Shown: piece after piece, positions 8,298 to 44,707 of the stretch | Layout of the letters: every line of letters begins with the position of its first letter | Numbering within the stretch: position 1 is the first letter of the stretch | Origin: Myxococcota bacterium | GTDB taxonomy: Bacteria > Myxococcota_A > UBA796 > UBA2385 | Assembly: GCA_023150805.1 (NCBI GenBank) | Contig: JAKLKF010000012.1 | Location: 17,564-81,563 of the forward strand | Direction: 5' to 3' | DNA length: 64,000 nucleotides | Program-made: the position numbers and the translations under genes | Notes under the pieces: generated by a model | What the model saw: only the letters and a program-made list of their open reading frames with translations | Database searches by the model: none | Told to the model about the DNA's origin: nothing

Positions 8298-8303
8298 CGT
8301 CCC

Positions 8304-9026: not shown

Positions 9027-9088
9027 CGCTTCCTCCGGGATGCCCTACGATAGCCGCCGGTCGCCCCCCCGGCCACGCGCGCCGCCGG

Positions 9089-24293: not shown

Positions 24294-24399
24294 GATGTCT
24301 CCGGATGTCTGGGCCGCAGCACTATAGCCGACCAGGTGACGGACGGGTGAAGCGCGGGGCGGCGTGCGTGCCTGCAGATCCGGGGCTACCCTGCCGGCG

Positions 24400-27833: not shown

Positions 27834-28103
27834 TCACCGCCGCCGGGGTCCGCGCTCCCGTCCCATGCCGAAGTCGTAGCCCGGGTAGGCCCGCCACATG
27901 CACCGGCCGCGCTCGTCGCGGAAGGTGAAGCCGGCGATGCGCCCGCAGGGGTCGACGATCACCCGCACCTGGCCATCCTGCGTGGTCTGGCGCGCGGCGT
28001 AGGCCGTGGCGTGCGGGGTGGCGGGCACGAACTGCACGGAGGCGACGGTGTCGCTCTGTTCAGCGACCACTTCGCTGGCGACGCTGTCGTGGGGACCGTG
28101 CAT
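27834..28103 (-). CDS. Small hypothetical protein (89 aa)
   Basis: GAGGAG ribosome-binding site before ATG 28103; plausible non-shadow composition. Confidence 0.5.
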   Translation of the reverse strand: MHGPHDSVASEVVAEQSDTVASVQFVPATPHATAYAARQTTQDGQVRVIVDPCGRIAGFTFRDERGRCMWRAYPGYDFGMGRERGPRRR

Positions 28104-28266
28104 CGTCCGCTCCTCGGCCTGCCGGGATGGTACCTCGCGGTGCACCGTGGAACGGTGAAATCGCGTGAAGGGGGCCCAAAGGACTCGCAAGGTCTTGGGA
28201 TCGTTCCCGGTTGCCCGCGGTCGGGCGACGGGCCGCCAGGGCCGGTCGCGGCGCGCCGCCGGGGCC

Positions 28267-29385
28267 TCAGCGCACGGGGCTGAAGCCCCGGTCTCCCCAG
28301 ATGTCCAGGTAGCCCTTCCAGACCCCCTCGCAGCCGTCCCGCAGCCGGCAGTCGGCGCAGGCCGCGGGCTGGCCCTTGAGGTCCCGCTTCTTGCGGTCCT
28401 GCCAGTTGAAGCGCGCGCGCTGCTCGGCCGCGTCGAACTGCACGACGGTGCTGGGGTACTGCTTGCCCCGCCCCTCGCCCGGCGGCACCTTGCCCGGCGG
28501 AATGACGTCCCCTCCGCCGCTGCGGATCGAGCAGGCCGTCGAGAGGTCCCGGTACTCGCCCATGTAGCGGCGCAGCAGGGCCTCGCTGCCGCGGAGCGCG
28601 GGCGGCAGGACGCACATCGGGAAGCCGCCGAAGGTGAAGGTGCGGCGGAAGTGGTGCTCGTTGAGCAGGATGGCCTTCACCAGCAGCGGGACGACCTGCT
28701 CGTAGCGGGGGGTGAGCTCGGCGTCGCCCTCGGCGTAGCCCTCAGCCCGGATGAAGTTCACCCGCAGGTCGGACAGGCCCAGGTCCCGGTAGAAGAACTG
28801 CATCATCTTCGGCAGGGCCGCGGCGTTCCAGCCGTTGAGCACGATGTTGACGGACAGGCCGTCGGGCAGGTGCCCCTGGGCTTGCTGCTTGTGCCGCAGG
28901 TAGCGCAGGGCCTCGACCTTCTTGTCGAAGTTGCCGGGCACCCGGGTCAGGCGGTCCTCGAGCGCGGCCGTGTGCCCGTGCATCGAGACCGTGACGCGCG
29001 TCAGGCCCGCGTCCAGCAGGCGGTCGGTGAAGTGCGGAAGCCGCAGCTTGGTCGCGTTGGTCGCGATGGCGACGCGGGTGAAGCCGAGCTTGCGGGCGTA
29101 GGCGACGCTGTCGACGATCCGCGGGTAGGTGGTGGGCTCGCCGCCGAGGAAGCCCACGCTGCGGTAGCCGTCGGCGTAGAAGCGCTCGAGCTCGGCCTGC
29201 ATCTGCTCGAAGCGCATGTAGCTGCGGTCTTCCTGCTTGGGCAGGCCGTCGATGCAGAAGACGCAGCGGTTGTTGCACGCCTTGCCGATGTTGATCTCGA
29301 CGTTGCGGCGCGCGTCGCGATCCGGGTTCCAGGGCTGGTTGCCCGGGGTCGGCTGCGGCAGGCTGGGGGCGGCGGTGGGCTGCAC
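28267..29385 (-). CDS. Radical SAM protein, HxsC-like
   Basis: CNNRCVFC, FLGGEPT, ATNA, SMHGH, GFPMC, C-terminal CADCRLRDGCEG. Confidence 0.88.
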   Translation of the reverse strand: MQPTAAPSLPQPTPGNQPWNPDRDARRNVEINIGKACNNRCVFCIDGLPKQEDRSYMRFEQMQAELERFYADGYRSVGFLGGEPTTYPRIVDSVAYARKLGFTRVAIATNATKLRLPHFTDRLLDAGLTRVTVSMHGHTAALEDRLTRVPGNFDKKVEALRYLRHKQQAQGHLPDGLSVNIVLNGWNAAALPKMMQFFYRDLGLSDLRVNFIRAEGYAEGDAELTPRYEQVVPLLVKAILLNEHHFRRTFTFGGFPMCVLPPALRGSEALLRRYMGEYRDLSTACSIRSGGGDVIPPGKVPPGEGRGKQYPSTVVQFDAAEQRARFNWQDRKKRDLKGQPAACADCRLRDGCEGVWKGYLDIWGDRGFSPVR

Positions 29386-29421
29386 GGAGGCAGTGTAGCC
29401 CGAGGGGTCGCCCCCGCAGCC

Positions 29422-30447
29422 TCAGCCCGCGCCGCCCGAGAAGGGGCGCAGCTCGTCGGTCTGGAAGGACAGGGCGTAGAGGTCGTTGACGCCCATGCAG
29501 ACCTCGCGGCGCGCGCAGCCCTCGCAGGCGGGCACGTGGGTGCGCTTGCGGTCGGGCGCCCAGGAGTAGATCCCCGCGAAGGCCACCTTGCCGGGGACGG
29601 ACTGCCACTCGACGGTGACGCGGGGATCCCAGTGCAGGTCGTTGCTGCAGCTCCAGTGGGGGCCGAGCAGGCACATCGGCACCCCGAAGAAGCGCAGCAC
29701 CGCGTCGGGCGCGCGCGCGGGGAGCAGGGGCAGGATGCGGGCGAGGTCGGCCAGCCGGGGCGCGAGCTCGGTGAAGCGGTCGAAGCCGCCGCCCTCCGCC
29801 GTCAGGTTGCTCACGACGATGAGGCGCGCCCCCAGCTCGCCCAGCAACGCCACCGTGTCGGGGAGCTGCTCGATGTTGCGCGCGGTGACGACCGTGTTGG
29901 CGAACAGGCCGAAGCCGGGCTGGCGGCGCGCGAGGCGCATGGCCGCCGTCACGGTCTCGAAGCTGCCGACGCGGCCGGCGAGCGCGTCGTGGACCGCGGC
30001 CGAGGGGCCGTGCACGCTGAACAGGGCCTCGTCGAGCCACGGCAGCGCCCGCTCCGCGAAGTCGGGACGCGAGAGCATGGTCCCGATGGTCCCGACGCTG
30101 GTCCGCATGCCCAGGCGGCGCGCGAGCTGCAGGGCCTCGACGAAGCGAGGATGGATCGTCGGCTCGCCCCCCGTGAAGTGCACGGAGCGCACGCCGCGGC
30201 TGGCGTGCAGGCGGAGCACCGTCGCCACGCGCCCCCAGGTCACCGGGAAGGCGCGGTAGGACGCCATCCGGTGCTCCTCGCTGCAGAAGGCGCAGCGCTC
30301 GGGGCAGTGGTAGGTCAGGTGCAGCTCCAGCCGCTGCATCACCTGCCCCTTGGGACCGATCCAAGGGCGCGCGTCGGCCGACAAGCCCAGCTCGCTCTGC
30401 TGGGTCGGGCTGGGCAGGTGACCGGGGGACGCCGCGGGCGAGGTCAT
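29422..30447 (-). CDS. Radical SAM protein, HxsC-like
   Basis: CPERCAFC, FTGGEPT, SVHG, GVPMC, C-terminal CEGCARREVCMG. Confidence 0.88.
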   Translation of the reverse strand: MTSPAASPGHLPSPTQQSELGLSADARPWIGPKGQVMQRLELHLTYHCPERCAFCSEEHRMASYRAFPVTWGRVATVLRLHASRGVRSVHFTGGEPTIHPRFVEALQLARRLGMRTSVGTIGTMLSRPDFAERALPWLDEALFSVHGPSAAVHDALAGRVGSFETVTAAMRLARRQPGFGLFANTVVTARNIEQLPDTVALLGELGARLIVVSNLTAEGGGFDRFTELAPRLADLARILPLLPARAPDAVLRFFGVPMCLLGPHWSCSNDLHWDPRVTVEWQSVPGKVAFAGIYSWAPDRKRTHVPACEGCARREVCMGVNDLYALSFQTDELRPFSGGAG

Positions 30448-30451
30448 CGCG

Positions 30452-31453
30452 TCAGCCCCCGCCGGTGGCGGCGCGCGGGCCCCGGCGCTTGGAGGCCAGC
30501 CACGCCGGGTAGAGGCCGCGCACCAGCCGGGTCAAGGCGGCGTCGACCGCCTGGGTCGACGCCCAGACCCCCTCCGGCAGCGCCTGGCGCAGCAGCTCCT
30601 CGACCCGGGCGGCGCCCGCCGCGAGCGCATCGGGCGTGGGGGGTTCGTCCAGGCTGCCCAGCCGGGTCTGTCCACGCAGCCCGTCGAGCTGGCCCGACAG
30701 GCCGACGTTGCTGGGGTGGACGCTGCGGTCGGCGTCCACGACCAGGCCGGTGTTGAAGAAGGGGGTGGGCGCCCAGGTGAACAGGTTGCGCAGGTAGAGG
30801 GGGCGGCCGGCGGCCCACTCCGCCCGGATCCGCTGCCCGATGGCCGAGAAGCCCGCCTCCAGCGCGTCGAGCTGGGCGGGCCTCCACGGCAGGTAGTAGC
30901 CGGGCAGCAGGTTGAAGCGGCGGAAGCCCAGCTCCAGCAGGTGGGCGAAGTTCTCGGCCGCCCGGGGAGCGGTCGAGGGCGCGATGGTCTGCGTCACGAC
31001 CAGGCGAGGGGCGCGGAGCAGCGCGGGCAGCAGGTCCCGCACGTGCTGGTAGCTGTCGGCCACCCCGGGCAGGGCGCGGCGCAGCCCGCGGTGGTCCTCG
31101 GGCCGCCCGTCCAGGCTCAGGGTCAAGATGACCTTGGGCCGGGCCGCGAGGAGGTCGAGCCAGCCGGCGTCGAGCCCCAGCCCGTTGGTGCTCAGGTAGA
31201 CGCGCCGGATCTCGGGGCGGGCGCTGGCCTCCTCGATGGCAGCCCGCACCACCTGGGGCACCAGCAGGGGCTCGCCGCCGAAGAGCTTCACGTCGCCCGG
31301 CCGGCGCGCGTCCACGTAGCGGGTGGCGAACAGCGAGACGGCCGCGCGCGCGTCCTGCTCCGTCAGCGAGGGCCAGCCGTCCTTGGCGGTCGGGCAGTAG
31401 GCGCAGCGCAGGTTGCAGGCCCGCGTCACCGTCAGGATCATCGACGGCGGCAT
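30452..31453 (-). CDS. Radical SAM protein lacking auxiliary-cluster cysteines
   Basis: CNLRCAYC, FGGEPLL, STNG, LSLDG; alternative GTG start at 31534 beside the precursor stop. Confidence 0.87.
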   Translation of the reverse strand: MPPSMILTVTRACNLRCAYCPTAKDGWPSLTEQDARAAVSLFATRYVDARRPGDVKLFGGEPLLVPQVVRAAIEEASARPEIRRVYLSTNGLGLDAGWLDLLAARPKVILTLSLDGRPEDHRGLRRALPGVADSYQHVRDLLPALLRAPRLVVTQTIAPSTAPRAAENFAHLLELGFRRFNLLPGYYLPWRPAQLDALEAGFSAIGQRIRAEWAAGRPLYLRNLFTWAPTPFFNTGLVVDADRSVHPSNVGLSGQLDGLRGQTRLGSLDEPPTPDALAAGAARVEELLRQALPEGVWASTQAVDAALTRLVRGLYPAWLASKRRGPRAATGGG

Positions 31454-31527
31454 CGCCGCTGGCGCCGGGAAGGTCTCCCCGCGCGTCCCCTCACCCAGCA
31501 CCGGGGCCGTCGGCTCCGCGCTGGGAC

Positions 31528-31860
31528 CTACCACTGCCCGTGGGAGCCGTGGCTGCCGTGGGAGCCGTGGCTGCCGTGGGAGCCGTGGCTGCCGTGCGAG
31601 CCGTGGCTGCCGTGCGAGCCGTGGCTGCCGTGCGAGCCGTGGCTGCCGTGCGAGCCGTGGCTGCCGTGCGAGCAGTGGGCCGCGAGCTGGATGCCGCCGC
31701 TGGCGGGGTCCGCGAGCAGGGCGTCCGCCTTGAGCAGCAGCTCGCTGCTGGCGTCGAGCTCCCCGGCGCTGGCCGCTTCGGTCCGCTGCAGGAAGTCGGC
31801 GGGCTTCTTGTCGATGGCGGGGAGCTTGGCGCTGCCCTTGTCCAGGTCCTTGGTGCTCAT
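31528..31860 (-). CDS. hxsA: His-Xaa-Ser repeat precursor peptide (HxsA-like)
   Basis: 61-aa leader-like region then HCS-(HGS)14-HGQW; strong AGGAGG site; directly downstream of hxsB. Confidence 0.9.
   Translation of the reverse strand: MSTKDLDKGSAKLPAIDKKPADFLQRTEAASAGELDASSELLLKADALLADPASGGIQLAAHCSHGSHGSHGSHGSHGSHGSHGSHGSHGSHGSHGSHGSHGSHGSHGQW
31543..31668 (-). repeat. 18-bp tandem repeat x7 encoding (HGSHGS)7
   Basis: Unit CACGGCAGCCACGGCTC(G/C): four TCG units then three TCC units. Confidence 0.95.
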
Positions 31861-31865
31861 GCCGA

Positions 31866-31871
31866 CCTCCT
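31866..31871 (-). promoter_or_regulatory. Shine-Dalgarno site of the precursor gene, overlapping the hxsB stop
   Basis: Minus strand TAGGAGGTCGGC-ATG. Confidence 0.75.
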
Positions 31872-33384
31872 AATCGTTGCCCGTGGCCGGCGGAGGAGTC
31901 TCCCGCGGCCGCGTGATCGTCCAGCGCTGGAAGATGCGCGCCAGGCTGCCGTCGTCGTCGGCCGCCAGGCGCTCGAAGAGCATGCGGGCGATGCCCATGT
32001 GCTGCATGCACTTGGGGGTGTTGGGCCGCTGCCCGAACAGGTCGCCGGCCTGCATGTAGTTGTGCAGCGGGCGGACCCCGCAGTAGGGCGCGTTCCAGCA
32101 CTCGTGGCACTGCGGCAGCCCGTCGAGCAGGCTGGCCACGGCCATGGCGCGCACGGTCGGGTGGCGGATCGCGTCCTGGATGCTGGTCTCGCCCACGCGC
32201 CCCAGGGCGAACATGGGGTTGCCCATGGCGTCGATCATCCGCCCCTCGTCGCTGGGGAAGATGGTGCCGTCGTAGTTGTAGGCGATCTGCCCCGTGCCCG
32301 CGCCGATCGGCGAGCGGATGTCGACGAAGTTGGGGTCGTCCGGGGTCAGCATCTTCTGCAGGAACAGGGCCGCCGTGCCCTCGATGATCTGCACACCGTC
32401 GCGGTTGAGCTGGATGATGTGGTCGAGCGCCTCCTCGTAGAAGCGCAGGAACTCGGGCATGTCCACGCCCACCACCTTCCAGGTCTTCGTGATGAAGCCG
32501 AAGGGGTTGAGCGGCCGCAGGTAGATGTTGCGGATGCCCAGCGACACGTACAGGTCGATCACCTCCCGCCAGTGGTCCATCGTCTTGCGGGTGGTGGTCA
32601 TCAGGGCGTCGACGTGCCACAGCTCGGGATCGCGTCCCAGCTCCACGTACCGGCGGTTGAAGTAGGAGATCCACTTCATCACGGTGTCGTAGGCGCCCGC
32701 CCCCTTGCCGGTCCAGGGGCGGTTCCAGTCGTGCACGTGCTGCGGACCGTCCAGGCTGGTGCACAGCAGCACGTCGTTGGCCAGCAGCCACTCGGCCTTC
32801 TCCTCGTCCATGCAGGTCATGTTGGTGACGAGGCTGAAGTCCAGCGTCTTGCCTTCCTGGCGGTTCTTCTCCCGGCCGTACTCGACGACGAACTTGATGA
32901 CGTCGAAGTTGACGGTCGGCTCGCCGCCCTGGAACTCGAAGGCGATGTAGGGGCTGGGCGACTGCATCGCCGTGTCGACCACCTTCTTGGCGGTCTCCAG
33001 GCTCATGTCGGTGTCGACCCGGTCCATGTCGGTGCGGGAGGCGTGGCAGTACTTGCAGGACTGGTTGCAGCGCAGCGTCGCGATCACGACGTGCAGGTGC
33101 GGCCCCATGCCCAGCCAGCGCTTCTTGCGCCGGAAGCGCTCGGCCACCGCTTCGGCGTCCATGCCGTCCCGCACGAAGCCCTTGGCCAGCAGGGCGGCGT
33201 GCTCGGCGTGGTCCGGGCCCAGTTCCCCCGCCAGCAGCGCCTGGAAGTCCGGCTCGGAGAGCAGGTGCCACTCGCCCGTGTCGTGGGTGAGGAGCACCTT
33301 GCCCGCCATCCGGCCGAAGCGGAAGGGCCCCAGCGCGTCGGCGTCCAGGCGCGGGTGCTGGAGTCGGAGGCTGCCGGTGCGCAT
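31870..33384 (-). CDS. hxsB: His-Xaa-Ser system radical SAM maturase HxsB
   Basis: N-terminal extension (PFRFGR..LLTHDTGEW), TLRCNQSCKYCHAS, EFQGGEP, TSLDGP, LRPLNPFGF, AYNYDG..SDEGRM, CHECWNAPYCG. Confidence 0.9.
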   Translation of the reverse strand: MRTGSLRLQHPRLDADALGPFRFGRMAGKVLLTHDTGEWHLLSEPDFQALLAGELGPDHAEHAALLAKGFVRDGMDAEAVAERFRRKKRWLGMGPHLHVVIATLRCNQSCKYCHASRTDMDRVDTDMSLETAKKVVDTAMQSPSPYIAFEFQGGEPTVNFDVIKFVVEYGREKNRQEGKTLDFSLVTNMTCMDEEKAEWLLANDVLLCTSLDGPQHVHDWNRPWTGKGAGAYDTVMKWISYFNRRYVELGRDPELWHVDALMTTTRKTMDHWREVIDLYVSLGIRNIYLRPLNPFGFITKTWKVVGVDMPEFLRFYEEALDHIIQLNRDGVQIIEGTAALFLQKMLTPDDPNFVDIRSPIGAGTGQIAYNYDGTIFPSDEGRMIDAMGNPMFALGRVGETSIQDAIRHPTVRAMAVASLLDGLPQCHECWNAPYCGVRPLHNYMQAGDLFGQRPNTPKCMQHMGIARMLFERLAADDDGSLARIFQRWTITRPRETPPPATGND

Positions 33385-33647
33385 CAGGTCGTTCCCCCGC
33401 CGTCGCCCCGCAGGGTCGCCTCGGCCTGGTTCCGCCGGACCACGGTCTCCGCGAGCACGTGGTTGCAGAAGTGGTCGACCAGGACGTCGGCCACGTCCGG
33501 GTCGACCTGCTCGAAGCGCACCGTCAGCTCGTGCTCCGAGGGCAGCACGGTCACGCGCGCCACGCCGGCGTACTGCGAGGCGACCGCCTCGACCGCCCCG
33601 TCGTCGTAGAGCGAGCGATGCAGAGAGACCTCAGGAGCCACCGCCAC
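33384..33647 (-). CDS. Small HxsD-like protein
   Basis: SLYDDGAVEAVASQY..DHFCNHVL parallels the HxsD pattern; TGATG overlap with hxsB. Confidence 0.65.
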   Translation of the reverse strand: MAVAPEVSLHRSLYDDGAVEAVASQYAGVARVTVLPSEHELTVRFEQVDPDVADVLVDHFCNHVLAETVVRRNQAEATLRGDGGGTT

Positions 33648-34113
33648 CCTCCCGCTCGGCGGGCGCGTCCCAGGGCACGCTGATCTCCAGGTCGTCCTGG
33701 GCCAGCTCCTCCTGGTCGAGCTCAGCCAGGAGCTGGTCGATGCTGGACCGGGTCGAGGTGCTGAAGAAGGCGCGGGCCATGTAGTACTCGCGGATCTTCC
33801 GGGTCGAGTCCCCGATGCGCACCCGCAGGACCTGGTTGAGCAGCTCGTTGGCCAGCTCGCCGGCCAGGGCCTCCAGCGCGGCGGGATCGGTCGGGCCCTT
33901 GGGCTTCAGCCGCACCTCGACCTGCTTGTCCGCCGACCGGTGCAGGTACACCCAGCAGCGGTCCACGAACAGGTAGGCGGCGCCGTAGATGGCGTCGAGG
34001 GGGTACAGCTCCTCGTCGACGCGCAGGGCCACGCGCCGGCCGTCCTCCAGCCAGGTCAGCTCGTCCACCAGCGCCTCGGCCGGGGTCGAGGTCTCCACGC
34101 TCACGTCGCTCAC
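33631..34113 (-). CDS. hxsD: His-Xaa-Ser system protein HxsD
   Basis: LYPLDAIYGAAYLFVDRC, GELANELLNQVLRVRI..TRKIRE resembling the HxsD LL(N/D)xxLR motif. Confidence 0.8.
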   Translation of the reverse strand: MSDVSVETSTPAEALVDELTWLEDGRRVALRVDEELYPLDAIYGAAYLFVDRCWVYLHRSADKQVEVRLKPKGPTDPAALEALAGELANELLNQVLRVRIGDSTRKIREYYMARAFFSTSTRSSIDQLLAELDQEELAQDDLEISVPWDAPAEREGGGGS

Positions 34114-34658
34114 GTCAGGCTCTCCGGGCCATAGGCCAGCAGGCGCTCGTCGTGCGGCTCCATCCGGGCCAGCTCGCCGAGGTCCCCCTGCGAGGACAGC
34201 TCGTTGGACCGGATGTGGGCCGCGAGCCCCATGACCACGCGCCCCAGGGACTCGTCGGTGGGCTTGTCGCCCTGCCCGCCGTCCATGAGCACCAGGTCCA
34301 GCAGCTCGGTGTGCGCCACGCCCCGGGGGCTACCCCGCCGGTGGCAGAGGTGCACGCGGCCGACCGCGCCGTCGCGGTGCTGCAGCGTGAGCACGCTGGC
34401 CCCGCGCTCCACCGCGCCGAGGTGGGCGACGAACCAGCCCGCTCCGACGTGCGAGCCGCGGGTCAGCGGCGCCAGCAGCCACCACGGCCCTGCGCCGGCC
34501 TGGGGCGAGGGAGGGGCCGACGAGCGCCCGGCGTCGGACGCTTCCGCCCCGCCGGGCGCGGGAGGCAGGCTCGAACCCACGGCGGCGGTGCCGACCACCA
34601 CCGTGGCCACCGCCGTTCCCAGGCCGATCTGCTGCAGGACCTTGCGACGAGAGTCCAT
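34110..34658 (-). CDS. Hypothetical protein with twin-arginine-like signal peptide
   Basis: MDSRRKVLQQIGLGTAVATVVVG; overlaps both neighbours (TGATG and GTGA). Confidence 0.7.
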   Translation of the reverse strand: MDSRRKVLQQIGLGTAVATVVVGTAAVGSSLPPAPGGAEASDAGRSSAPPSPQAGAGPWWLLAPLTRGSHVGAGWFVAHLGAVERGASVLTLQHRDGAVGRVHLCHRRGSPRGVAHTELLDLVLMDGGQGDKPTDESLGRVVMGLAAHIRSNELSSQGDLGELARMEPHDERLLAYGPESLT

Positions 34659-36979: not shown

Positions 36980-37083
36980 CGCCGGCTCCGGGAACTCGGA
37001 CTCGGAGCCTACAGGAACCCGGAGGGGTCCGCAAGCGCCGCGTCAAGATCACCAAGCGTCGCAGGGGCCCGGGGGCGACCACC

Positions 37084-38121: not shown

Positions 38122-38277
38122 GCCAGCTCCGGTCCGGGCGGGGTCGGTCGTTCCACCGATGCGGTCAGGGCGCGCCGGCGGGCAGGGTGAACCTACACGG
38201 GCGAAGTGAACTTGGCAGCGGGAGGTGCAAGGCGCCGTCGCGGGCGGTATCGTCTGCGCTCTCTCGGGAGCCCCGCC

Positions 38278-41200
38278 ATGCCCCTGGTCGCCCCTTTCCT
38301 GGCCATCTTCGCGCTGGCGTGCAGCAGCGACGGCAAGATCACCGCCTACACCGAGCCGCCGGAGGTGACGATCACCACCCCCGCCGACGGTGCCGAGGTG
38401 CTCCAGGCCGTCGCCGTGTCGATGCGCGGCCTGGTGGTCGACAAGGAGTTCTCCGACAGCCTGTCCAGCCTGACGGCGCAGTGGAGCGTCGACGGCGAGG
38501 CCATCTGCGAGGGGTCCTACGTCGACGACGGCGGCAACGTCGCCTGCGTCCACACCTTCGCGGTGGCCGGCACGGTCGAGCTGGCGCTGACCGTCACCAA
38601 CCCCGACGGCGCCTCGGCCACCGCGACCTCCGAGGTGGTGGTCCTGCCCAACGCCGCCCCGACCGTGGCCATCGAGCTGCCCGACCCGACCGGGCGGTAC
38701 TACGCCGACCAGCTTCTCTCCTTCCTGGCGTGGGCCAACGACGGCGAGGACGCCGCGACCGACCTGTTCGCCACCTGGACGAGCGACCTCGAGGGCACGC
38801 TGGACATCGACGACACGCCCGACGCCGACGGCATGCTGGCCGGAGACACGGTGCTGGGCGAGGGCGAGCACCTGATCACCCTGCAGGTCGAGGACACCAC
38901 CGGCCTGATCGGCACCGACTCGATCATCGTGGACATCGGGCCGCCGAACAGCCCCCCCTCCTGCGCCATCACCGCCCCCGGCAACAACGACAGCTTCGAG
39001 ATCGGCAGCACCATCCTCTTCGAGGGGACGGCGACCGACGCGGACATCGACGCCGACGAGCTGACCGTCACCTGGAGCAGCTCCCTGGACGGCGTGCTCT
39101 CGACCACCGCGCCGACCTCGGCGGGCACCATGACCTTCGGGGCCAGCGGCCTGAGCGCGGCCACCCACACCATCACCCTGCAGGTCGAGGACGAGCTGGG
39201 CGGGTCCTGCAGCGACGCCATCCTCATCTCGGTGGGCGACGGTCCCGACGTGGTCATCGACAACCCGACCTCCGGGGACGTCGAGAACGAGGGCGAGTCG
39301 GTCGCCTTCCAGGCGACGGTCACCGATCCCGACGACGCGGCGACCTCGCTGGACATCACCTGGGAGAGCAGCCTGGACGGCGTGCTGAGCACCGCTGGCG
39401 CCGACAGCTCGGGCATCACGGCCTTCTCTTTCGCGGGCCTGTCGGTGGGCGACCACATCATCTCGGTCACCGCGGTCGACCCGGAGGGCTACTACGCCGT
39501 CGAGAGCGTGCGGCTCACCATCAACGGCCTGCCCGACGAGCCGGTGGTCGAGATCGACCCCGGCGACCCGCTCTCCGACCAGGACCTGACGGCGATCATC
39601 ACCGCCGACAGCACCGACCCCGAGGGTGACGCGGTCACCTACACCTATGCCTGGCGCCGGAACGGCGCGTCCACCAGCTACATCACCGACACGGTGCCGG
39701 CCTCGGCGACCACGCGTGGCGAGACCTGGTCGGTCGTCGTGACCCCCAACGATCCCTACGGCAGCGGGGCCACCGGCACCGACAGCGTGGTCGTCGCCAA
39801 CGCGCCGCCGTCGGTGGCCTCCGCCGCCATCAGCCCCACGAGCCCGGTCGAGGGGGACACGCTGACCTGTGTCGCGGGCGCGACCTCGGACGCCGACGGG
39901 GACACGGTGAGCCTGAGCTACCGCTGGACCGTCGACGGCGTGGCGGCGTCTTCGACCTCCAGCACGCTGTCGTCGACCGCCTTCGAGAAGGGCGACAGCG
40001 TCACCTGCAGCATCACGCCCAACGATGGCTACGCCGACGGCACGACCGTCACCTCGGCGGCCGTGACCGTGGGCAACAGCGCCCCCACCATCACCGCGGC
40101 CACGCTCGCGCCGACCACGGCCTACGAGGCGTCGACCCTGACCTGCACCCCCAGCGGCGGCACGGACGCCGACGGGGACACGGTCAGCTACCGCTACGAC
40201 TGGGTCGTGGGCAGCTCGACCCTGGGGCTGGACAGCGCGAGCCTGACGGGATCCTGGTTCGACAAGGGCGACGCGGTCACCTGCGTGGTGACCCCCACCG
40301 ACGGGACCGACGACGGCAGCCCGGTGTCCTCCAACGTCGTCACGGTCCGGAACACGGCCCCCCAGCTCACCAGCGTGACCCTCAGCCCGACCTCGCCCAC
40401 CGAGAGCAGCACCATGTCCTGCTCGCCGGGCGCGACCTCGGACGACGACGGTGACAGCGTCAGCCTGACCTACGGCTGGGTGGTGGACGGGGTCGACCTG
40501 GGCCTCAGCGGCAGCAGCCTGAGCAGCGCCTGGTTCGGCAGCGGCGACACGATCCAGTGCTACGGCACCCCCGACGACGGCACGACCGCGGGCGCCGCCG
40601 TGTACTCGGCGGTCGTGACGGTGGCCAACACGGCCGCGACGGTCGCCAGCGCCAGCATCACCCCGACCAGCCCGGTCGAGGGGGACACGCTGACCTGCGT
40701 GGCGGGCACCAGCAGCGATGTCGACGGCGACGCCGTCACGCTGTCCTACCGCTGGGCGATCGACGGCTCGACCATCGCCGCCACTGGCAGCACCCTCTCT
40801 TCCACCTGGTTCGGCCGGGGCGACTCGGTCACCTGCACCATCACGCCCAACGACGGGACGACCGACGGGACCAGCGTCACCTCGGCGGCCGTCGTGGTCG
40901 GCAACACGGCCCCCAGCCTGGCCTCGGTCAACCTCTCGCCCACTACGGCCTACGAAGGCTCGACGATGACCTGCACGCCGGGCAGCGCCACGGACGTGGA
41001 CGGCGACACGGTCTCGTACCGCTACGACTGGCTGGTCTCCGGCACCTCGCTGGGCCTGGACAGCAGCAGCCTGTCGGGCTCCTGGTTCGACAAGGCCGAC
41101 ACGGTCACCTGCGTGGTGACGCCGACCGACGGCACCGCCTCCGGCAGCGCGGTCTCGTCGAACACCGTGACCATCCGGAACACCGCGCCGGTCCTGGCCA

Positions 41201-42798
41201 GCCTGTCGCTCACGCCCACCACCGCGACCGAGAGCAGCACCTTCGCCTGCACGCCGGGCGGGACCTCGGACGCCGACGGCGACAGCGTCAGCCTGAACTA
41301 CGGCTGGCTGGTCGACGGCGCGGACGCCGGGGTGACTGCGGCCAGCCTGGCGGGCGCGTACTTCGGAAAGGGCGACACCGTCCAGTGCTACGCGACGCCC
41401 TACGACGGCGCGACCAGCGGGACCACGCTGTACTCGGCGACGGTGACCGTGTCCAACACCGCGCCCTCGGCCACCGCCGTCGAGATCGCGCCCGTCGACC
41501 CCTACACGGACGACACCCTGACGGCGACCGCCAGCGGCTGGACCGACCCCGACGGCGACGCCGAGGGCTACGACTGGCAGTGGTACGTCGACGGCACCGC
41601 GGTCAGCTCGGGCGGCACCAGCCGCACCCTGTCGGGCACCAAGTTCTCCAAGCACCAGCTCGTCCACGTGGTGGCCACCCCCGACGACGGCACCGCGACG
41701 GGCAGCCCCGTCACCAGCGGCACGGTGGAGATCCTGAACACCGCGCCGACCGCGCCCACGGTGCAGGTCACGCCGACCGACGCCGAGCCCGAGGACGACC
41801 TGGTCTGCGGCATCGTCACCCCCAGCGCCGACGCTGACGGCGACACGGTCAACTACCGCTACGAGTGGTGGGTGGACGGGGTCAAGTCGACCGTCACCAC
41901 CGCCACCCTGGACGAGGCCTACACCGAGGACGGCGACACCTGGACCTGCCGGGTCACGCCCTACGACGACGACGAGGACGGCACCTCGGCCAGCGACGCC
42001 CAGGAGGTGGTGGACCGCACGGCGCCCGACCAGCCGGTGATCTCGGCCATCGACGAGTACCGGAACACGACCTCGGTGTCGTTGTCCGGCACGGCCGAGG
42101 CCGGCGCGACGGTCACGGTGACCATGGACTGCACCGACGGCACGCTGAGCGAGGTGGACGTCACCGCCTCGTCCGGCGGCACCTGGTCGACCTCGTTCTC
42201 GATGGACCGCGGCGAGGAGTGTGACTTCGTCGCCTACGCCACCGACGCCCACGGCAACGTCAGCGGCCTGAGCAACACGGTCACCACCGAGTCCTGCAAC
42301 CCCTACGACACGCGCGAGGACAGCCTGGGCTACGGCGACACCTGTGTCGAGTCCATCGACGAGTGGTCGGTCCTCACCGACGCCGGCACGACCGTCGTCG
42401 AGATCCAGGGCAACATCATCGACACCACCGATGTCGACTGGTACGTCATCGACACCTCGCAGACGGTGCTGACCGCCGGCACCAACGTCTACAACTTCGA
42501 GGTGACGCTGACGGAGGGCGCCTCGGACTACACCTTCGAGGTGTACCGCGGCAGCTGCGCGACCGCCGACCTGGAGTGTCCGTCGACGCCGGACCTGACG
42601 GACTACGCCTACTTCGCCCAGGACGTGGGCGGCGCGGAGCACTCGATCCCCTCGGACAGCCGCTACTGCTACACGGGCTCGCCCTTCTACAACAACTGCG
42701 ACGACCTCAGCGACGTGTACTACATCAAGGTCGAGCGGATCAGCACCGCCCTGTCCTGCCAGCACTACGAGCTGTCGATCAGCAACGGCGCCTGGTAG
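38278..42798 (+). CDS. Giant Ig-like repeat surface lipoprotein (~1500 aa), paralog of 34658-36979
   Basis: Lipobox ALAC; many ~90-aa S/T/D-rich repeats with DADGD and paired Cys; ends CQHYELSISNGAW. Confidence 0.85.
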   Translation: MPLVAPFLAIFALACSSDGKITAYTEPPEVTITTPADGAEVLQAVAVSMRGLVVDKEFSDSLSSLTAQWSVDGEAICEGSYVDDGGNVACVHTFAVAGTVELALTVTNPDGASATATSEVVVLPNAAPTVAIELPDPTGRYYADQLLSFLAWANDGEDAATDLFATWTSDLEGTLDIDDTPDADGMLAGDTVLGEGEHLITLQVEDTTGLIGTDSIIVDIGPPNSPPSCAITAPGNNDSFEIGSTILFEGTATDADIDADELTVTWSSSLDGVLSTTAPTSAGTMTFGASGLSAATHTITLQVEDELGGSCSDAILISVGDGPDVVIDNPTSGDVENEGESVAFQATVTDPDDAATSLDITWESSLDGVLSTAGADSSGITAFSFAGLSVGDHIISVTAVDPEGYYAVESVRLTINGLPDEPVVEIDPGDPLSDQDLTAIITADSTDPEGDAVTYTYAWRRNGASTSYITDTVPASATTRGETWSVVVTPNDPYGSGATGTDSVVVANAPPSVASAAISPTSPVEGDTLTCVAGATSDADGDTVSLSYRWTVDGVAASSTSSTLSSTAFEKGDSVTCSITPNDGYADGTTVTSAAVTVGNSAPTITAATLAPTTAYEASTLTCTPSGGTDADGDTVSYRYDWVVGSSTLGLDSASLTGSWFDKGDAVTCVVTPTDGTDDGSPVSSNVVTVRNTAPQLTSVTLSPTSPTESSTMSCSPGATSDDDGDSVSLTYGWVVDGVDLGLSGSSLSSAWFGSGDTIQCYGTPDDGTTAGAAVYSAVVTVANTAATVASASITPTSPVEGDTLTCVAGTSSDVDGDAVTLSYRWAIDGSTIAATGSTLSSTWFGRGDSVTCTITPNDGTTDGTSVTSAAVVVGNTAPSLASVNLSPTTAYEGSTMTCTPGSATDVDGDTVSYRYDWLVSGTSLGLDSSSLSGSWFDKADTVTCVVTPTDGTASGSAVSSNTVTIRNTAPVLASLSLTPTTATESSTFACTPGGTSDADGDSVSLNYGWLVDGADAGVTAASLAGAYFGKGDTVQCYATPYDGATSGTTLYSATVTVSNTAPSATAVEIAPVDPYTDDTLTATASGWTDPDGDAEGYDWQWYVDGTAVSSGGTSRTLSGTKFSKHQLVHVVATPDDGTATGSPVTSGTVEILNTAPTAPTVQVTPTDAEPEDDLVCGIVTPSADADGDTVNYRYEWWVDGVKSTVTTATLDEAYTEDGDTWTCRVTPYDDDEDGTSASDAQEVVDRTAPDQPVISAIDEYRNTTSVSLSGTAEAGATVTVTMDCTDGTLSEVDVTASSGGTWSTSFSMDRGEECDFVAYATDAHGNVSGLSNTVTTESCNPYDTREDSLGYGDTCVESIDEWSVLTDAGTTVVEIQGNIIDTTDVDWYVIDTSQTVLTAGTNVYNFEVTLTEGASDYTFEVYRGSCATADLECPSTPDLTDYAYFAQDVGGAEHSIPSDSRYCYTGSPFYNNCDDLSDVYYIKVERISTALSCQHYELSISNGAW

Positions 42799-42850
42799 GC
42801 GGTCGCGGCGCCGGGGGCGCAAGGGGAAGGGGGCCGGCGGGGCCCCGCCC

Positions 42851-44707
42851 CTACCGGTCCACCGGGTGAGGGGCCACCTTGACCCGGGTCGGGCCCTTCA
42901 CCAGCGGCCGGGGCAGCTTGCCCAGCGCGTTGGCCGCGACGGCGAGGGGATCGTCGACAGGCCCGGCGGGCGCCGCGAAGCCCGGCAGCGACGGGTGGGC
43001 CGGCTCCAGCGCCTTGCCGTCGCGAACCCGGGGCGGCGGCGAGGGGAAGCGCGCCTGGAGCTGCTCGGCGGCGTCCCGCGCCCAGGCGCCCGTCAGCGGC
43101 CGACACTGGCGCAGGCCCTGGTCCCGCACCATCTGGATGTGCACGCCGTCGCAGCGGTCGGTCACCGGGCAGTCGGCGCAGCGCACGGACTTCGCGCGGT
43201 AGGCGCGGGTCACGTGCTCCCGGGCCAGCTCGCGGATGGCGATGCGGCCGGTCTGCGGGTCGAAGAGTACCGGCCCCACCCGCCGCACCGGCGCGACCAG
43301 CTCCATCCCCGGCGCCTGGCAGGGCGCCAGGCCGCTCACCGGCAGGCGCCGGCCGAGCGCGGCGAAGAAGGCGGCCGGATCGCGCAGGTCGTGGGCCACG
43401 GCCTGGGCCAGGTGCTCGAAGGTGGGCTGGTGCACGCGCACCGCCCCCACCAGCCGCTGGGGGTGGGCGAGCATCCACGCCGCCGTGTCCCGGTTCAGCT
43501 CGATCTCCACGCGGACGTCCGCCGCGGTCCCCAGCCAGGCGTCCAGCTGGTCGCCGCGGCTGGCGATCAGCCACAGGTCCGGCGGCAGGTCCACCAGGGC
43601 CTCGGCCGAGGCCAGGCGGGCCTCCAGGCCCAGCCCCGGCGGCAGGACGGCGGCCAGGGCGTGCAGGGCGGCCAGGTCGGCCACCTCGACCCCGACCCGT
43701 CGACAGCCATAGGGCAGGGGCGAAGGCAGCGACAGGGACTCCGGCGAGGTGGCCCCCAGCTCCCACACCTCGAAGCGCGCGGCGTTCAGGTCGGCGACCG
43801 TCCGGTCCATCGTCGTGCAGAAGGGCTCGATGAAGCAGTGCACGCACCGGTCGGCGTCGCGGCACTCCATCGCCTTGCCGACGTCGAGGTAGTTGCGGAC
43901 CATCGTCCCGCGGCCGTTCACCTCGTCCAGCATCTTGTGCGGGTCCTGGATCAGCTCCTCCAGGCCCTCCAGGAAGTGCACCGGGAAGCGGTTGGTCCAC
44001 ACGTAGACGCCGGGGTGCCGGTTGAGCCGGAAGACCTTGTGCAGCACCGGGAGGTGCTCCCGCACGTCGTAGAAGAGCAGGTCGCGGTTCTCGAAGGCGT
44101 TGGCCTGGGGGATGACGTGCAGCAGGTCGAACTCCCGCACGCCCACGCTCAGGCACAGCTCCACGATCTTGTCGAGGTGGGCCACGTTCTGCTTGTTGAT
44201 GCAGACGTCGACGTTGACGATGGGCCCCCGCGGGTCCCGCCGCGCCCGCATCATGCCCTTCATCAGCTTCTGGAAGCCGCCGGGCGTCTGGGTCAGCCAG
44301 TCATGCAGCGCCTCGGTGTGGCCGTGCAGGCTGAAGGTGATCTCGCCCAGCCCGGCGTCCCGGCAGGCCAGGTAGAAGTCCCGGTCCGCGAACATCGTGC
44401 CGTTGGTCACGGTCTGGACCCGGTCGTAGCCCAGCTCCCGCTTCGCGAAGCGCACCAGCTCGACGAACTGCGGGTGCAGCGTCGCCTCGCCCCCGCTGAT
44501 GATGACCTTGTCCGCGCCCAGCTCCTCGATGCCCCGGCGCAGCTCGGCCTTGACCTCGTCCACCGGCAGGTAGACGTTGCGCGGCGTGTCGGCGTCCAGG
44601 CAGAACAGGCACCGGCTGTTGCAGGCCGTCACCGCGCGCACCCAGTGCTTGGGGCGGTTGGCGATGCGCTCGCGAAGCAGCAGGTCTTCGGTGGTCGGTG
44701 CGGCCAT
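42851..44707 (-). CDS. Extended radical SAM protein (HxsC-like N-half plus second Cys-rich module)
   Basis: CNSRCLFC, ISGGEAT, VTNG, SLHGH; internal CRDADRCVHCFIEPFC and terminal CADCPVTDRCDG. Confidence 0.87.
   Translation of the reverse strand: MAAPTTEDLLLRERIANRPKHWVRAVTACNSRCLFCLDADTPRNVYLPVDEVKAELRRGIEELGADKVIISGGEATLHPQFVELVRFAKRELGYDRVQTVTNGTMFADRDFYLACRDAGLGEITFSLHGHTEALHDWLTQTPGGFQKLMKGMMRARRDPRGPIVNVDVCINKQNVAHLDKIVELCLSVGVREFDLLHVIPQANAFENRDLLFYDVREHLPVLHKVFRLNRHPGVYVWTNRFPVHFLEGLEELIQDPHKMLDEVNGRGTMVRNYLDVGKAMECRDADRCVHCFIEPFCTTMDRTVADLNAARFEVWELGATSPESLSLPSPLPYGCRRVGVEVADLAALHALAAVLPPGLGLEARLASAEALVDLPPDLWLIASRGDQLDAWLGTAADVRVEIELNRDTAAWMLAHPQRLVGAVRVHQPTFEHLAQAVAHDLRDPAAFFAALGRRLPVSGLAPCQAPGMELVAPVRRVGPVLFDPQTGRIAIRELAREHVTRAYRAKSVRCADCPVTDRCDGVHIQMVRDQGLRQCRPLTGAWARDAAEQLQARFPSPPPRVRDGKALEPAHPSLPGFAAPAGPVDDPLAVAANALGKLPRPLVKGPTRVKVAPHPVDR

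Follow-up and report, generated by a model that had tools for sequence, protein, structure and literature searches.

Known His-Xaa-Ser systems and related maturases

HxsABCD, the canonical His-Xaa-Ser (HXS) system, was recently reported to be an antiphage system that blocks phage DNA entry (Li et al., Nat Commun 2026, PMC13128918). Therefore, the statement of an earlier note on the DNA studied here, that such genes have no established function, is outdated. According to that report, HxsA is matured by HxsB, HxsC and HxsD, HxsC and HxsD form a complex, and each HxS repeat is required. In E. coli, a +8 Da change (+C, -4H) was found on HxsA and mapped to one HxS repeat, and Arg/Lys enrichment was invoked for DNA binding by HxsA (PMC13128918). 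Protection from phage, a matured effector in the periplasm and the +8 Da modification are known for the E. coli system only. Canonical systems consist of four genes in the order D-B-C-A and are often plasmid-borne; 99.7% are reported to be from Pseudomonadota. Their HxsA carries a signal peptide, five basic-rich HxS repeats and a peptidoglycan-binding domain.

NCBIfam also includes models for a type 4 of these proteins: HxsA4 (NF038313), HxsC4 (NF038332, described as 'rare') and HxsD-like (NF038315). Since the type-4 kind is thus already curated, the view that the present pathway was probably undescribed is outdated or not supported. Nevertheless, our searches gave no publication dealing with HxsA4-type systems or with the multi-enzyme architecture, and none naming HxsA4 or HxsC4. 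Three loci of the same phylum but of other classes (L082, L087 and L089) have a true HxsC4 gene (594-602 bits on NF038332) directly 3' of an HxsA4 gene whose product ends in ...HGSW, and these loci hold additional radical SAM genes.

Plasmid HxsA2-type systems, for instance that of Nostoc p057_G (annotated hxsA2-hxsD-hxsB-hxsC), likewise have a small precursor with C-terminal HxS repeats, and their leader consensus shares with that of HxsA4 a (K/R)(K/R)..FL motif at a common position. However, their precursors differ from HxsA4 in starting with a signal peptide that has a Tat-like (R/K)(R/K)xFL(K/S/T) motif (RRKFLK in a Sphingobium plasmid system), and they have 4-6 repeats and a standard single HxsC. 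Outside Hxs systems, CteB, anSME and PqqE follow a similar logic, in which a radical SAM enzyme carrying auxiliary clusters modifies a leader-bearing ribosomal peptide.

Organization of the locus

Positions 28267-44707 of the window, i.e. of the whole stretch of 64,000 nucleotides that was analyzed, contain six genes for radical SAM enzymes. They also encode a 110-aa precursor, HxsD and a short HxsD-like protein, two large Ig-repeat lipoproteins and an orphan protein bearing a Tat signal. Genes were called by plotting GC3 in each frame and translating the ORFs, and the features are as follows (bit scores are followed by the family cut-off):

28267..29385, minus strand: g1, HxsC-like radical SAM enzyme, 372 aa (PF04055, 76.2 bits; NF038332, 133.2 versus 500)
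29422..30447, minus strand: g2, HxsC-like radical SAM enzyme, 341 aa (PF04055 and NCBIfam searches)
30452..31453, minus strand: g3, single-cluster radical SAM enzyme, 333 aa (NF047865, 89.4 versus 340)
31528..31860, minus strand: HxsA4 precursor, 110 aa (NF038313, 82.8 versus 55)
31538..31678, no strand: DNA tandem repeat, 7.8 copies of an 18-nt unit that encodes HGSHGS, the two Ser codons alternating
31870..33384, minus strand: HxsB, radical SAM/SPASM maturase, 504 aa (TIGR03978, 503.1 versus 370)
33384..33647, minus strand: HxsD-like protein, 87 aa (NF038315, 54.3 versus 41)
33631..34113, minus strand: HxsD, 160 aa, extended by helical sequence at its C-terminus (TIGR03976, 55.5 versus 50)
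34110..34658, minus strand: g8, 182-aa orphan protein bearing a twin-arginine (Tat) signal (translation and orthologue alignment)
34658..36979, minus strand: g9, lipoprotein, 773 aa, Ig-like repeats (Big_7 and related Pfam matches)
37084..38121, minus strand: g10, HxsC-like radical SAM enzyme, 345 aa, at the head of the operon (TIGR03977, 89.9 versus 267.9)
38206..42798, plus strand: g11, Ig-repeat lipoprotein, 1530 aa (GC3 0.98 in the plus frame; Pfam Big_6 and Big_7)
42851..44707, minus strand: g12, HxsC-like radical SAM enzyme, 618 aa (PF04055 and NCBIfam searches)

All six radical SAM proteins belong to PF04055 (50.9-76.2 bits, cut-off 29.5) and have the CX3CX2C motif, so the six minus-strand genes listed by the earlier note all stand, as do its two HxsD-type proteins and its description of an expanded His-Xaa-Ser locus with HxsB and exported proteins. 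The 1530-aa gene, by contrast, lies on the plus strand, and the long minus-strand ORF 37084-42822 is spurious past 38121.

Ten genes would form one operon, g10-g9-g8-hxsD-hxsD-like-hxsB-hxsA4-g3-g2-g1, as judged from their arrangement. Stop and start codons overlap at g9/g8, g8/hxsD, hxsD/hxsD-like and hxsD-like/hxsB, g8 being translationally coupled to both g9 and HxsD, and the remaining spacers are 4-104 nt. The neighbors of the operon are the divergent paralogous lipoprotein gene g11 and the further radical SAM gene g12. The operon contains no peptidase or dedicated exporter gene. Contigs from RNA libraries of three studies match it with 0-4 differences, including at the hxsB-hxsA4 junction, which is only a weak sign of its expression.

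Like canonical HXS, the locus combines HxsB, HxsD (the motif NELLNQxLRxR corresponding to LLNDYxLRE) and an HxS-repeat substrate with a second class of radical SAM enzymes bearing a C-terminal C...CX2CX5C set. In contrast to canonical HXS, it has no true HxsC; its radical SAM enzymes number six and its HxsD-type proteins two, the extreme C-terminus of its precursor is made of 14 HGS units without charge, and it also encodes an orphan Tat protein and lipoproteins. The identity of its HxsB to plasmid HxsB does not exceed 37.6%. It also differs from the HxsC4-type loci, as g3-g2-g1 fill the place of HxsC4, the precursor tail is HGQW and g8 is present.

The precursor and the core Hxs proteins

HxsA4 consists of a leader of about 61 aa followed by H-C-S, (HGS)14 and HGQW as its C-terminus. 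Its ORF has a GC3 of 0.99, its ATG is shortly preceded by a GGAGG ribosome binding site and its product is recognized by the HxsA4 model: the short HGS-repeat ORF noticed earlier is a real gene. It scores 16.2 bits on the canonical HxsA model TIGR03979 (cut-off 121.65). Pfam detects no domain in it except a low-complexity Collagen match, and hence no peptidoglycan-binding domain; its translation has no signal peptide or hydrophobic N-terminus. Among 86 precursors collected, the number of repeats varies from 5 to 57 and 75 end in HGQW, while the H-C-S start, the HGS unit and the terminal W are invariant. A short precursor, a conserved leader, a core of 5-57 repeats and adjacent radical SAM maturase genes make this a RiPP-type arrangement.

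The cysteines 106/110/113 and 426/429/435 of HxsB are invariant in 91/91 orthologues. Among SPASM/twitch maturases, HxsB and g3 are nearest to anSME and to 5wgg (E 1.2e-25 and 8.7e-23, respectively, the best PDB match of each), which we take to be CteB (SCIFF). However, the enzymes of the locus score far under every such family cut-off. The predicted model of HxsD is confident over residues 30-110 (pLDDT >90) and has no fold match at E <=0.001; it weakly resembles the small alpha/beta adaptor modules Rpb11, Pcc1 and S6 (E ~3e-3). No PqqD/RRE-type domain was identified at the locus.

HxsC-like paralogs and the single-cluster enzyme

The earlier note had counted four HxsC-like paralogs. These four genes are indeed present, but curated cut-offs do not make them HxsC or HxsC4. 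In the window, scores on the HxsC equivalog TIGR03977 are highest for g10, then 81.3, 62.2 and 49.9, whereas true HxsC of the same phylum reach 360-365. On NF038332, g1 gives the best score of the window, and the whole genome has no match above the cut-off (best 129.6). Hence, neither window nor genome contains a curated HxsC or HxsC4.

With pairwise identities of 25-33%, g1, g2, g10 and g12 are old paralogs. In addition to CX3CX2C (C37/41/44), g1 has five more invariant cysteines, including C343-X2-C346-X5-C352, in 43/43 orthologues. Besides their CX3CX2C, g2 retains C259 and C308-X2-C311-X5-C317 in 77/77 orthologues and g10 retains C223 and C268-X2-C271-X5-C277 in 37/37, orthologues of g10 in other classes being 44-52% identical. 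Two extra four-Cys sets (282/288/291/297 and 463/510/513/519) are invariant in 37-38/38 orthologues of g12. In the tree, g1, g2, g10 and g3 each make one clade with SH-like support of 99; the g12 label takes three changes, yet inside a 17-row clade with support of 100. The Cys-poor extra enzyme proved to be g3, whose core is PapB/CteB-like: its three cysteines (C13/C17/C20) are those of the SAM cluster and the only invariant ones in its alignment, SPASM cysteines being absent.

Exported proteins

The N-terminus of g8, S-R-R-K-V-L-Q followed by a hydrophobic run, has the form of a Tat signal, and g8 is thus a predicted Tat-exported protein. R4 and R5 are nearly invariant among 29 orthologues, four of which are matched by Pfam TAT_signal and none by another Pfam family. 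No match was found for g8 among NCBIfam, Pfam and PDB sequences, and although its model is confident (pLDDT >90 for residues 60-175), it gave no match to PDB folds at E <=0.001. No clean correlation supports a role of g8 in export: loci of the HxsC4 type lack both a hydrophobic leader and a nearby g8. The lipobox of g9 reads LMAGC. Its paralog g11, divergent from g10, has a Cys-containing C-terminal domain in common with it, and some of the related loci place a g11-like gene between hxsB and the precursor gene.

Conservation and inheritance

Related loci were sought with a g3 profile, which gave 130 relatives, of which 80 were kept and 36 were flanked by 9 kb or more on each side; the records all come from metagenome genomes of Myxococcota type. 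Among these 36, the poly-HGS ORF and g2 are each found in 35, HxsD and g8 in 34, HxsB in 33, HxsD-like in 26, g1 in 25, g12 in 20, g10 in 15, g9 in eight and g11 in three. The precursor gene is directly followed by g3 and g2 in nearly all loci (35/36). The gene g12 adjoins g10 in relatives, upstream of g8 in some and downstream of g1 in others, and therefore their linkage survives rearrangement.

The absence of g1, g10 and g12 from part of the related loci counts against the pathway proposed below; in some cases, however, a contig end truncates the locus or the genes lie outside the 10-kb flank.

In a 401-genome sample of the phylum, HxsB occurs in 51/53 genomes with g3 and 75/79 with a g8-like gene, against a base rate of 144/401. 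Hence, the extra enzymes co-occur with hxsB elsewhere, and the neighborhood comparison does not refute the earlier note, for which a failure to do so would have been damaging.

Across its 7.77 Mb, the genome contains 88 PF04055 matches and several further radical SAM clusters, and an accidental pile-up of decaying radical SAM paralogs could be imagined in such a genome. However, this density predicts about 0.19 matches per 16.4 kb versus the six seen; the corresponding Poisson chance of ~5e-8 is rough because paralogs cluster, and the clustering is far above chance. Frames are open throughout the locus with GC3 of 0.9-0.99, the catalytic and auxiliary cysteines are invariant across 37-91 orthologues, and synteny is kept across families, orders and the class. 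An accidental origin is thus already contradicted by the conservation data and extremely improbable: the cassette is real and widely conserved, not a chance cluster.

The locus looks vertically inherited because HxsB is near-universal in four families (29/29, 18/19, 6/6 and 5/5 sampled genomes) and its identity drops with taxonomic distance, from 83% within the genus to 34-50% in other classes; the argument is soft since related genomes are not independent. Two high-quality genomes (G300 and G380) each hold both an HxsC4-type locus and a g8/g3-type locus.

A putative maturation pathway and its role

We propose, with a probability of about 0.7, that the locus represents a type-4 Hxs variant, conserved and inherited with the chromosome, that carries out the multi-step cytoplasmic maturation of a His-rich peptide acting in the envelope; its chemistry and biological role are what we infer. 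HxsA4 would be the ribosomal precursor, with a leader, a Cys, (HGS)14 and HGQW. HxsB, the four HxsC-like enzymes and g3 would act in turn on the repeat units in the cytoplasm, the C...CX2CX5C set of HxsB (SPASM type) and of each HxsC-like enzyme being compatible with an auxiliary Fe-S cluster. HxsD and HxsD-like may be small adaptor subunits, by analogy with the HxsC-HxsD complex published for canonical HXS; this transfer is inferential because curated HxsC and HxsC4 are absent from window and genome. Chemically, the modification is probably related to the +8 Da change of canonical HxsA, but introduced many times over and taken further. Once matured, the peptide would likely be used outside the cytoplasm, possibly with g8 or carried by it.

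Alternatively, Hxs proper could be limited to HxsB, HxsD and HxsA4, the extra radical SAM enzymes maturing g8, g9 or g11 or making a non-peptide compound. Tat substrates are often cofactor-bearing proteins, g1, g2, g10 and g12 fall under the HxsC and HxsC4 cut-offs, and their nearest solved relatives include BlsE, which does not act on peptides, as well as PqqE, the nearest one of g10. However, the paralogs have the C...CX2CX5C set of a true, canonical HxsC, g3 and g2 follow the precursor almost everywhere while g9 and g11 are infrequent, and other-class loci without g8, g9 and g11 keep two to four HxsC-like enzymes beside HxsA4. This makes another substrate very unlikely.

The same maturation logic might instead serve defense, a periplasmic poly-HGS peptide, perhaps held by g8 or the lipoproteins, hindering phage DNA entry. 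Defense is the sole experimentally shown Hxs function, through an HxsA that is matured by HxsB, HxsC and HxsD and needs every repeat (PMC13128918). Furthermore, the predicted Tat protein and lipoproteins would put part of the locus in the envelope, and the two genomes with both locus types are compatible with lateral gain. On the other hand, HxsA4 lacks a signal peptide and a peptidoglycan-binding domain, its repeats contain no basic residue, the locus is flanked by housekeeping-like genes, and PADLOC 2.0 gives generic viperin cross-hits and nothing more at the locus. Moreover, canonical hxsB is found on 392 plasmids, 317 of them conjugative, versus an apparent vertical inheritance here, itself a soft argument. 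Overall, this antiphage scenario is unlikely.

If the proposed maturation pathway is right, we tentatively lean, at somewhat less than even odds, toward a housekeeping role in the envelope (metal binding, a peptide-derived cofactor or a structural element); some other role is less likely, and phage-entry defense as in canonical HXS slightly less likely still.

While the type-4 families were already curated at NCBI, the architectural variant with multiple enzymes is best read as new. The locus can be viewed as an unstudied and far larger relative of the four-gene system that was recently shown to block the entry of phage DNA.

Gene organization of the cluster

Gene calls were based on third-position G+C, frame plot and translations. 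Since the G+C content of the window is about 72%, most of its long ORFs are spurious. Thirteen features were delimited in this way between 28267 and 44707. The genes are, in order of their transcription on the minus strand:

42851-44707, minus strand: g12, HxsC-like radical SAM enzyme (618 aa)
38206-42798, plus strand: g11, Ig-repeat lipoprotein (1530 aa), between g10 and g12
37084-38121, minus strand: g10, HxsC-like radical SAM enzyme (345 aa)
34658-36979, minus strand: g9, Ig-repeat lipoprotein (773 aa)
34110-34658, minus strand: g8, orphan Tat-signal protein (182 aa)
33631-34113, minus strand: HxsD, putative small adaptor (160 aa)
33384-33647, minus strand: HxsD-like protein, putative small adaptor (87 aa)
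31870-33384, minus strand: HxsB, radical SAM/SPASM maturase (504 aa)
31528-31860, minus strand: HxsA4, poly-HGS precursor (110 aa)
30452-31453, minus strand: g3, single-cluster radical SAM enzyme (333 aa)
29422-30447, minus strand: g2, HxsC-like radical SAM enzyme (341 aa)
28267-29385, minus strand: g1, HxsC-like radical SAM enzyme (372 aa)

A 1912-aa minus-strand ORF lying over the g11 stretch was rejected as an artefact. The genes from g10 to g1 are packed as an operon: one base is common to g9 and g8 and one to the HxsD-like gene and hxsB, g8 and hxsD overlap by GTGA, hxsD and the HxsD-like gene overlap by 17 nt, and the other spacers measure 4-104 nt. The ATG of hxsA4 is directly preceded by GGAGG. 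An Rfam scan of the window gave 0 matches, and scans for promoters and terminators found no signal above shuffled controls. Near-identical DNA occurs in activated-sludge and wastewater metagenomes. Furthermore, RNA libraries from three studies yielded contigs that fall on every part of the cluster with 0-4 differences per piece, some of them bridging hxsB and hxsA4; they are a weak hint of expression, since DNA carry-over is possible and they do not show strand, level or transcript ends.

The flanking genes encode an AstE/AspA-family protein, an rRNA methyltransferase, a nicotinate phosphoribosyltransferase, a thioesterase and a sulfatase, and look unrelated to the cluster. A small ORF just downstream of g1 (27834-28190, minus strand) has a high GC3, shows conservation limited to its genus and family (57-94% identity in the related loci L040, L099, L100, L104 and L105) and was assigned to no family. 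The window also carries an ABC exporter-type gene (10861-12636, minus strand) 16 kb from the operon and, at its far end, type II secretion/type IV pilus-like genes (T2SSF, PilM; 55674-56906 and 60896-62566, both plus strand), for none of which a link to the Hxs operon was seen.

Six radical SAM enzymes, four of them HxsC-like

All six enzymes belong to the Pfam Radical_SAM family (PF04055, 50.9-76.2 bits for a cut-off of 29.5), and HxsA4 (NF038313, 82.8 vs 55), HxsB (TIGR03978, 503.1 vs 370), HxsD (TIGR03976, 55.5 vs 50) and the HxsD-like protein (NF038315, 54.3 vs 41) exceed their NCBIfam cut-offs, which confirms the six-enzyme His-Xaa-Ser cluster that the earlier note had recognized from the sequence. 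The outline of its interpretation also held, but the membership of four enzymes in HxsC was overstated. The best NCBIfam matches of g1, g2, g10 and g12 are indeed HxsC4 or HxsC, all far under the cut-offs: 133.2, 89.1, 63.4 and 90.7 bits, respectively, on HxsC4 (NF038332, cut-off 500) and 62.2, 49.9, 89.9 and 81.3 on HxsC (TIGR03977, cut-off 267.9). As positive controls from the same phylum, true HxsC reaches 360-365 bits in loci L068 and L071 and true HxsC4 594-602 bits in L082, L087 and L089. No HxsC4 was found by profile search of the window's own genome.

The four HxsC-like enzymes share 25-33% identity. In a FastTree phylogeny of 120 rows sampled from 385 extracted sequences, g1, g2, g10 and g3 form one clade each (support 99), with group labels given by best hit and at least 44% identity and therefore partly circular; HxsC4 and several further paralogue groups are separate. 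The g12 label requires three changes because of this 44% identity labelling, and the rows of g12 type, some of them from other classes, make up one 17-row clade (support 100). Each HxsC-like paralogue retains CX3CX2C and an invariant four-Cys set, C...CX2CX5C (37-77 orthologues each). Moreover, g1 has a fifth invariant Cys, C285, and g12 keeps two sets of the C...CX2CX5C type. A canonical plasmid HxsC displays the same pattern, with Cys at 332, 357, 360 and 366, and for HxsC a second Fe-S site has been reported at C342/C345 (Li et al., Nat Commun 2026, PMC13128918). The sets found here may bind auxiliary clusters. The cysteines of g3 are just the three of the SAM cluster, and g3 is similar to the PapB-type maturase core (89.4 vs a cut-off of 340). 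Among solved structures, HxsB and g3 come closest to 5wgg and anSME, and g10 to PqqE. An anSME-type sulfatase maturase acting on the product of the nearby sulfatase gene (24364-25923) was considered and rejected, HxsB scoring just 85/349 bits on the sulfatase-maturase model; this gene is a neighbour in one of the 20 first-batch HxsB neighbourhoods, that of the same-genus locus L040.

The genome contains 88 PF04055 matches in 7.77 Mb, 87 of them above the cut-off, so that about 0.19 radical SAM genes would be expected per 16.4 kb, where six were found. Several other tight radical SAM clusters exist in this genome, for instance four genes within about 3.3 kb on contig C72 and others on C210, C358 and C66. 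A second HxsB (453.8 bits, above cut-off) is encoded on contig C166 (locus L039, about 5600-10100). On its flanks are a convergent HxsC-like radical SAM gene (134.5 bits on HxsC4, below cut-off), a further radical SAM gene and a GNAT-like ORF, with a very large PKS-like ORF alongside; no HxS-repeat ORF was found within 3 kb.

Conservation of the cluster among Myxococcota

HxsB scores above the cut-off in 141 of the 401 sampled genomes of the phylum, among them 29/29, 18/19, 6/6 and 5/5 genomes of four families. The proteins of the window were mapped onto 60 HxsB neighbourhoods. The 27 same-class loci, many of them cut by contig ends, encode HxsD (25), the poly-HGS precursor (23), g8 (22), g2 (19), g3 (18), g1 (10), g10 (8) and g12 (7). 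The 32 loci from other classes harbor HxsD (14), a poly-HGS precursor (11) and g12-like (5) or g10-like (4) genes, and no close g3, g2 or g1.

A g3 profile scan of one genome per species retrieved 130 relatives, of which 80 were kept. All derive from metagenome-assembled or draft genomes, entitled Myxococcota, Deltaproteobacteria, Polyangiaceae, Sandaracinaceae or evidently mislabelled. In the 36 loci that extend at least 9 kb to either side, the precursor and g2 are each found in 35, HxsD and g8 in 34, HxsB in 33, the HxsD-like protein in 26, g1 in 25, g12 in 20, g10 in 15, g9 in eight and g11 in three. The g12-g10 pair is located either upstream of g8 or downstream of g1 and therefore its linkage survives rearrangement. 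Within the 401 genomes, HxsB accompanies g3 in 51 of 53 and g8-like proteins in 75 of 79; these co-occurrences are given as counts and not as tests because related genomes are not independent. Distant g8-like genes also adjoin hxsB in other classes (for instance in genomes G300, G380, G349, G269 and G150).

G300 and G380, two high-quality genomes from other classes, contain two Hxs loci each. In both, g8-like, HxsB and g3 genes lie side by side (contigs C21 and C54, respectively), with E-values for g3 as strong as those within the window's own order. The other locus is of the HxsC4 type in G380 (L082), and only HxsB was seen in that of G300 (L072). These double loci are compatible with lateral transfer.

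Some relatives carry two additional enzymes that are absent from the window. An aKG-HExxH-type peptide beta-hydroxylase domain protein (TIGR04267, 80-90 bits vs a cut-off of 40) is encoded next to the cassette in 12 of the 39 related loci that span 18 kb or more (L178:16601-17794, L145:16769-18004 and 10 further loci). The other is a protein of about 1060 aa (L130:3743-6922 and four further loci) in which a B12-binding-type radical SAM region is fused to a g3-like radical SAM domain (about 31% identical to g3). Many genomes of the class encode this protein, close to the cassette as well as at other sites.

The precursor and its partner proteins

In HxsA4, about 61 leader residues precede H-C-S, fourteen HGS units and a closing HGQW. 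Three features are constant among 86 precursors gathered from related loci: the initial H-C-S, the HGS unit, which is rarely replaced by HAS, and the terminal W. Of these precursors, 75 end in HGQW and have 5 to 57 repeats (median 14), and the 11 that end in HGSW have 10 to 22. The leader has conserved L-P-x-L, (K/R)(K/R) and F-L-Q..E motifs and, further on, D-P. At the DNA level, the repeat is an 18-nt unit with alternating Ser codons, and because of this alternation a DNA pattern for the HGS repeat matched nowhere, including in the window. The Pfam Collagen match of HxsA4 (31531-31860, minus strand; 34.1 vs a gathering score of 27.2) arises because (GSH)n sets Gly at every third residue; it was dismissed as a low-complexity artefact, and HAS variants in relatives break the Gly period.

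The published LYW and LLNDYxLRE motifs have counterparts in HxsD. Its model, confident at residues 30-110, weakly resembles small alpha/beta adaptor or dimerisation modules (Rpb11, Pcc1, S6; E about 3e-3), and the fold search gave no match at E <= 0.001. The N-terminus of g8 bears an S-R-R motif with a nearly invariant RR. Its mature domain is modelled with pLDDT > 90 and matched no PDB fold at E <= 0.001 (best E 1.0, TM <= 0.23) and no PDB sequence; it has no family in NCBIfam or PADLOC and only TAT_signal in Pfam. A kinship of g8 with HxsD was ruled out (hhalign probability 0.2%). A word-indexed search collected 149 clusters of g8 relatives, all unnamed, and an exhaustive one 816 representatives at E <= 0.001. 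g8 represents a sizeable uncharacterised protein family tied to Hxs systems. The two lipoproteins, g9 and g11, are paralogues; both contain Ig-like repeats and end in a common Cys-containing domain of about 170 aa (34661-35182, minus strand, and 42316-42795, plus strand). This domain, which also ends other large proteins in related loci, gave no PDB sequence match for g9 and is, as an impression only, like pre-peptidase C-terminal domains.

Known Hxs systems and the possible role of the locus

The His-Xaa-Ser system was reportedly first described from genomes, by Haft and Basu in 2011. In our literature search on His-Xaa-Ser and HxsA/B/C/D, Li et al. (2026) was the sole functional study found. 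According to this study, HxsABCD of E. coli stops phage DNA entry, HxsD is bound by HxsC, and HxsA, which comprises a signal peptide, five basic HxS repeats and a peptidoglycan-binding domain, is modified by +8 Da (read as +C, -4H) on the last HxS repeat (PMC13128918). The earlier note, which knew of no established function, was thus outdated on this point. A JBC paper from 2022 names HxsB and HxsC, in two passages, as annotated clusters only. The type-4 families have already been named by NCBI curators; no paper on HxsA4, HxsC4, HxsA2, HxsA3 or a His-Gly-Ser repeat was found in the searchable part of the literature, most subscription journals being outside it. The locus belongs to a known type of system, characterised only recently, and represents a new architecture of it.

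In the conserved operon, a precursor made of leader and repeats is coupled with HxsB, two proteins of the HxsD type, four HxsC-like enzymes with twin motifs, one single-cluster enzyme and a Tat-signal protein. The radical SAM enzymes would act sequentially in the cytoplasm on every HGS unit, with the invariant Cys and Trp of HxsA4 as possible further targets; the HxsD-type proteins would serve as adaptors, and the mature product would work in the envelope.

How this product might leave the cell can be considered from other precursors. Four plasmid loci (L179-L182) encode short precursors of the HxsA2 kind, so annotated in Nostoc, with an N-terminal signal peptide containing a Tat-like (R/K)(R/K)xFL(K/S/T) motif (RRKFLK in the n-region on a Sphingobium plasmid) and C-terminal HxS repeats. 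These signals hint that radical-SAM-matured Hxs peptides may exit by the Tat route. The HxsA4 leader has (K/R)(K/R)..FLQ at a similar place, whereas the hydrophobic stretch is lost in the window's class; some other classes retain it. In addition, locus L121 (5514-9995) contains two precursor genes, with 18 and 41 HGS units, and a second g8 copy directly upstream of the second one, so that g8 and precursor were co-duplicated as a pair. The lost hydrophobic stretch, the near-constant presence of g8 and this duplication suggest that g8 may have taken over export. However, when g8 was tested for being confined to loci whose leaders lack the hydrophobic stretch, the means did not differ (0.71 vs 0.72), and HxsC4-type loci have neither a close g8 nor a hydrophobic leader, so that the correlation gives no clean support. 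A Tat hitch-hiker role of g8 is a low-odds lead, kept because of the co-duplication in L121 and the Tat-like signals of HxsA2 precursors.

Concerning the role of the product, a housekeeping function is favoured, at about 45%, be it in metal binding, as a peptide-derived cofactor or as a structural element. The grounds are that the poly-His core is uncharged, that the locus is present family-wide with chromosomal synteny, and that its neighbours include no defence genes. Phage defence like that of the E. coli system is less probable; that system is a relative with a demonstrated antiphage effect, and PADLOC returned only generic radical SAM-to-viperin cross-hits. Canonical hxsB is found on 392 plasmids (315 from Klebsiella, 317 conjugative), encoding proteins of at most 37.6% identity to HxsB of the window, and matches six phage records. 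Some other role takes the remaining probability. Beyond the favoured housekeeping function, one fuller reading makes the operon the source of a new kind of ribosomal product. Up to six or seven radical SAM enzymes would remodel each unit of a poly(His-Gly-Ser) chain, whose length varies between 5 and 57 units, and turn it into a rigid polymer rich in imidazole that acts as a cofactor or wire, either metal-binding or redox-active. Having lost the Tat-like signal of the short HxsA2 precursors, this polymer would ride on g8 for export and have a housekeeping envelope function across Myxococcota and not phage defence. Taken as a whole, this reading is improbable.

For the Hxs family, the first function and the first modification (+8 Da) came only in 2026. 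The locus and its roughly 130 relatives can be viewed as a natural dissection kit for this chemistry, offering the target unit 5-57 times per substrate, two adaptors of the HxsD type and six radical SAM enzymes from separate genes, among them four old HxsC paralogues. The HGS-repeat substrate should give large, readable mass shifts, and enzyme-by-enzyme additions could reveal the separate tasks of HxsB-type and HxsC-type enzymes. The distribution picture also changes: PMC13128918 assigns 99.7% of the systems found through HxsA to Pseudomonadota (>99.8% being four-gene systems), whereas HxsB is present in 141 of the 401 genomes sampled here. HxsA4-type precursors account for most of the HxsB carriers of this phylum, and a search with canonical HxsA would miss them.
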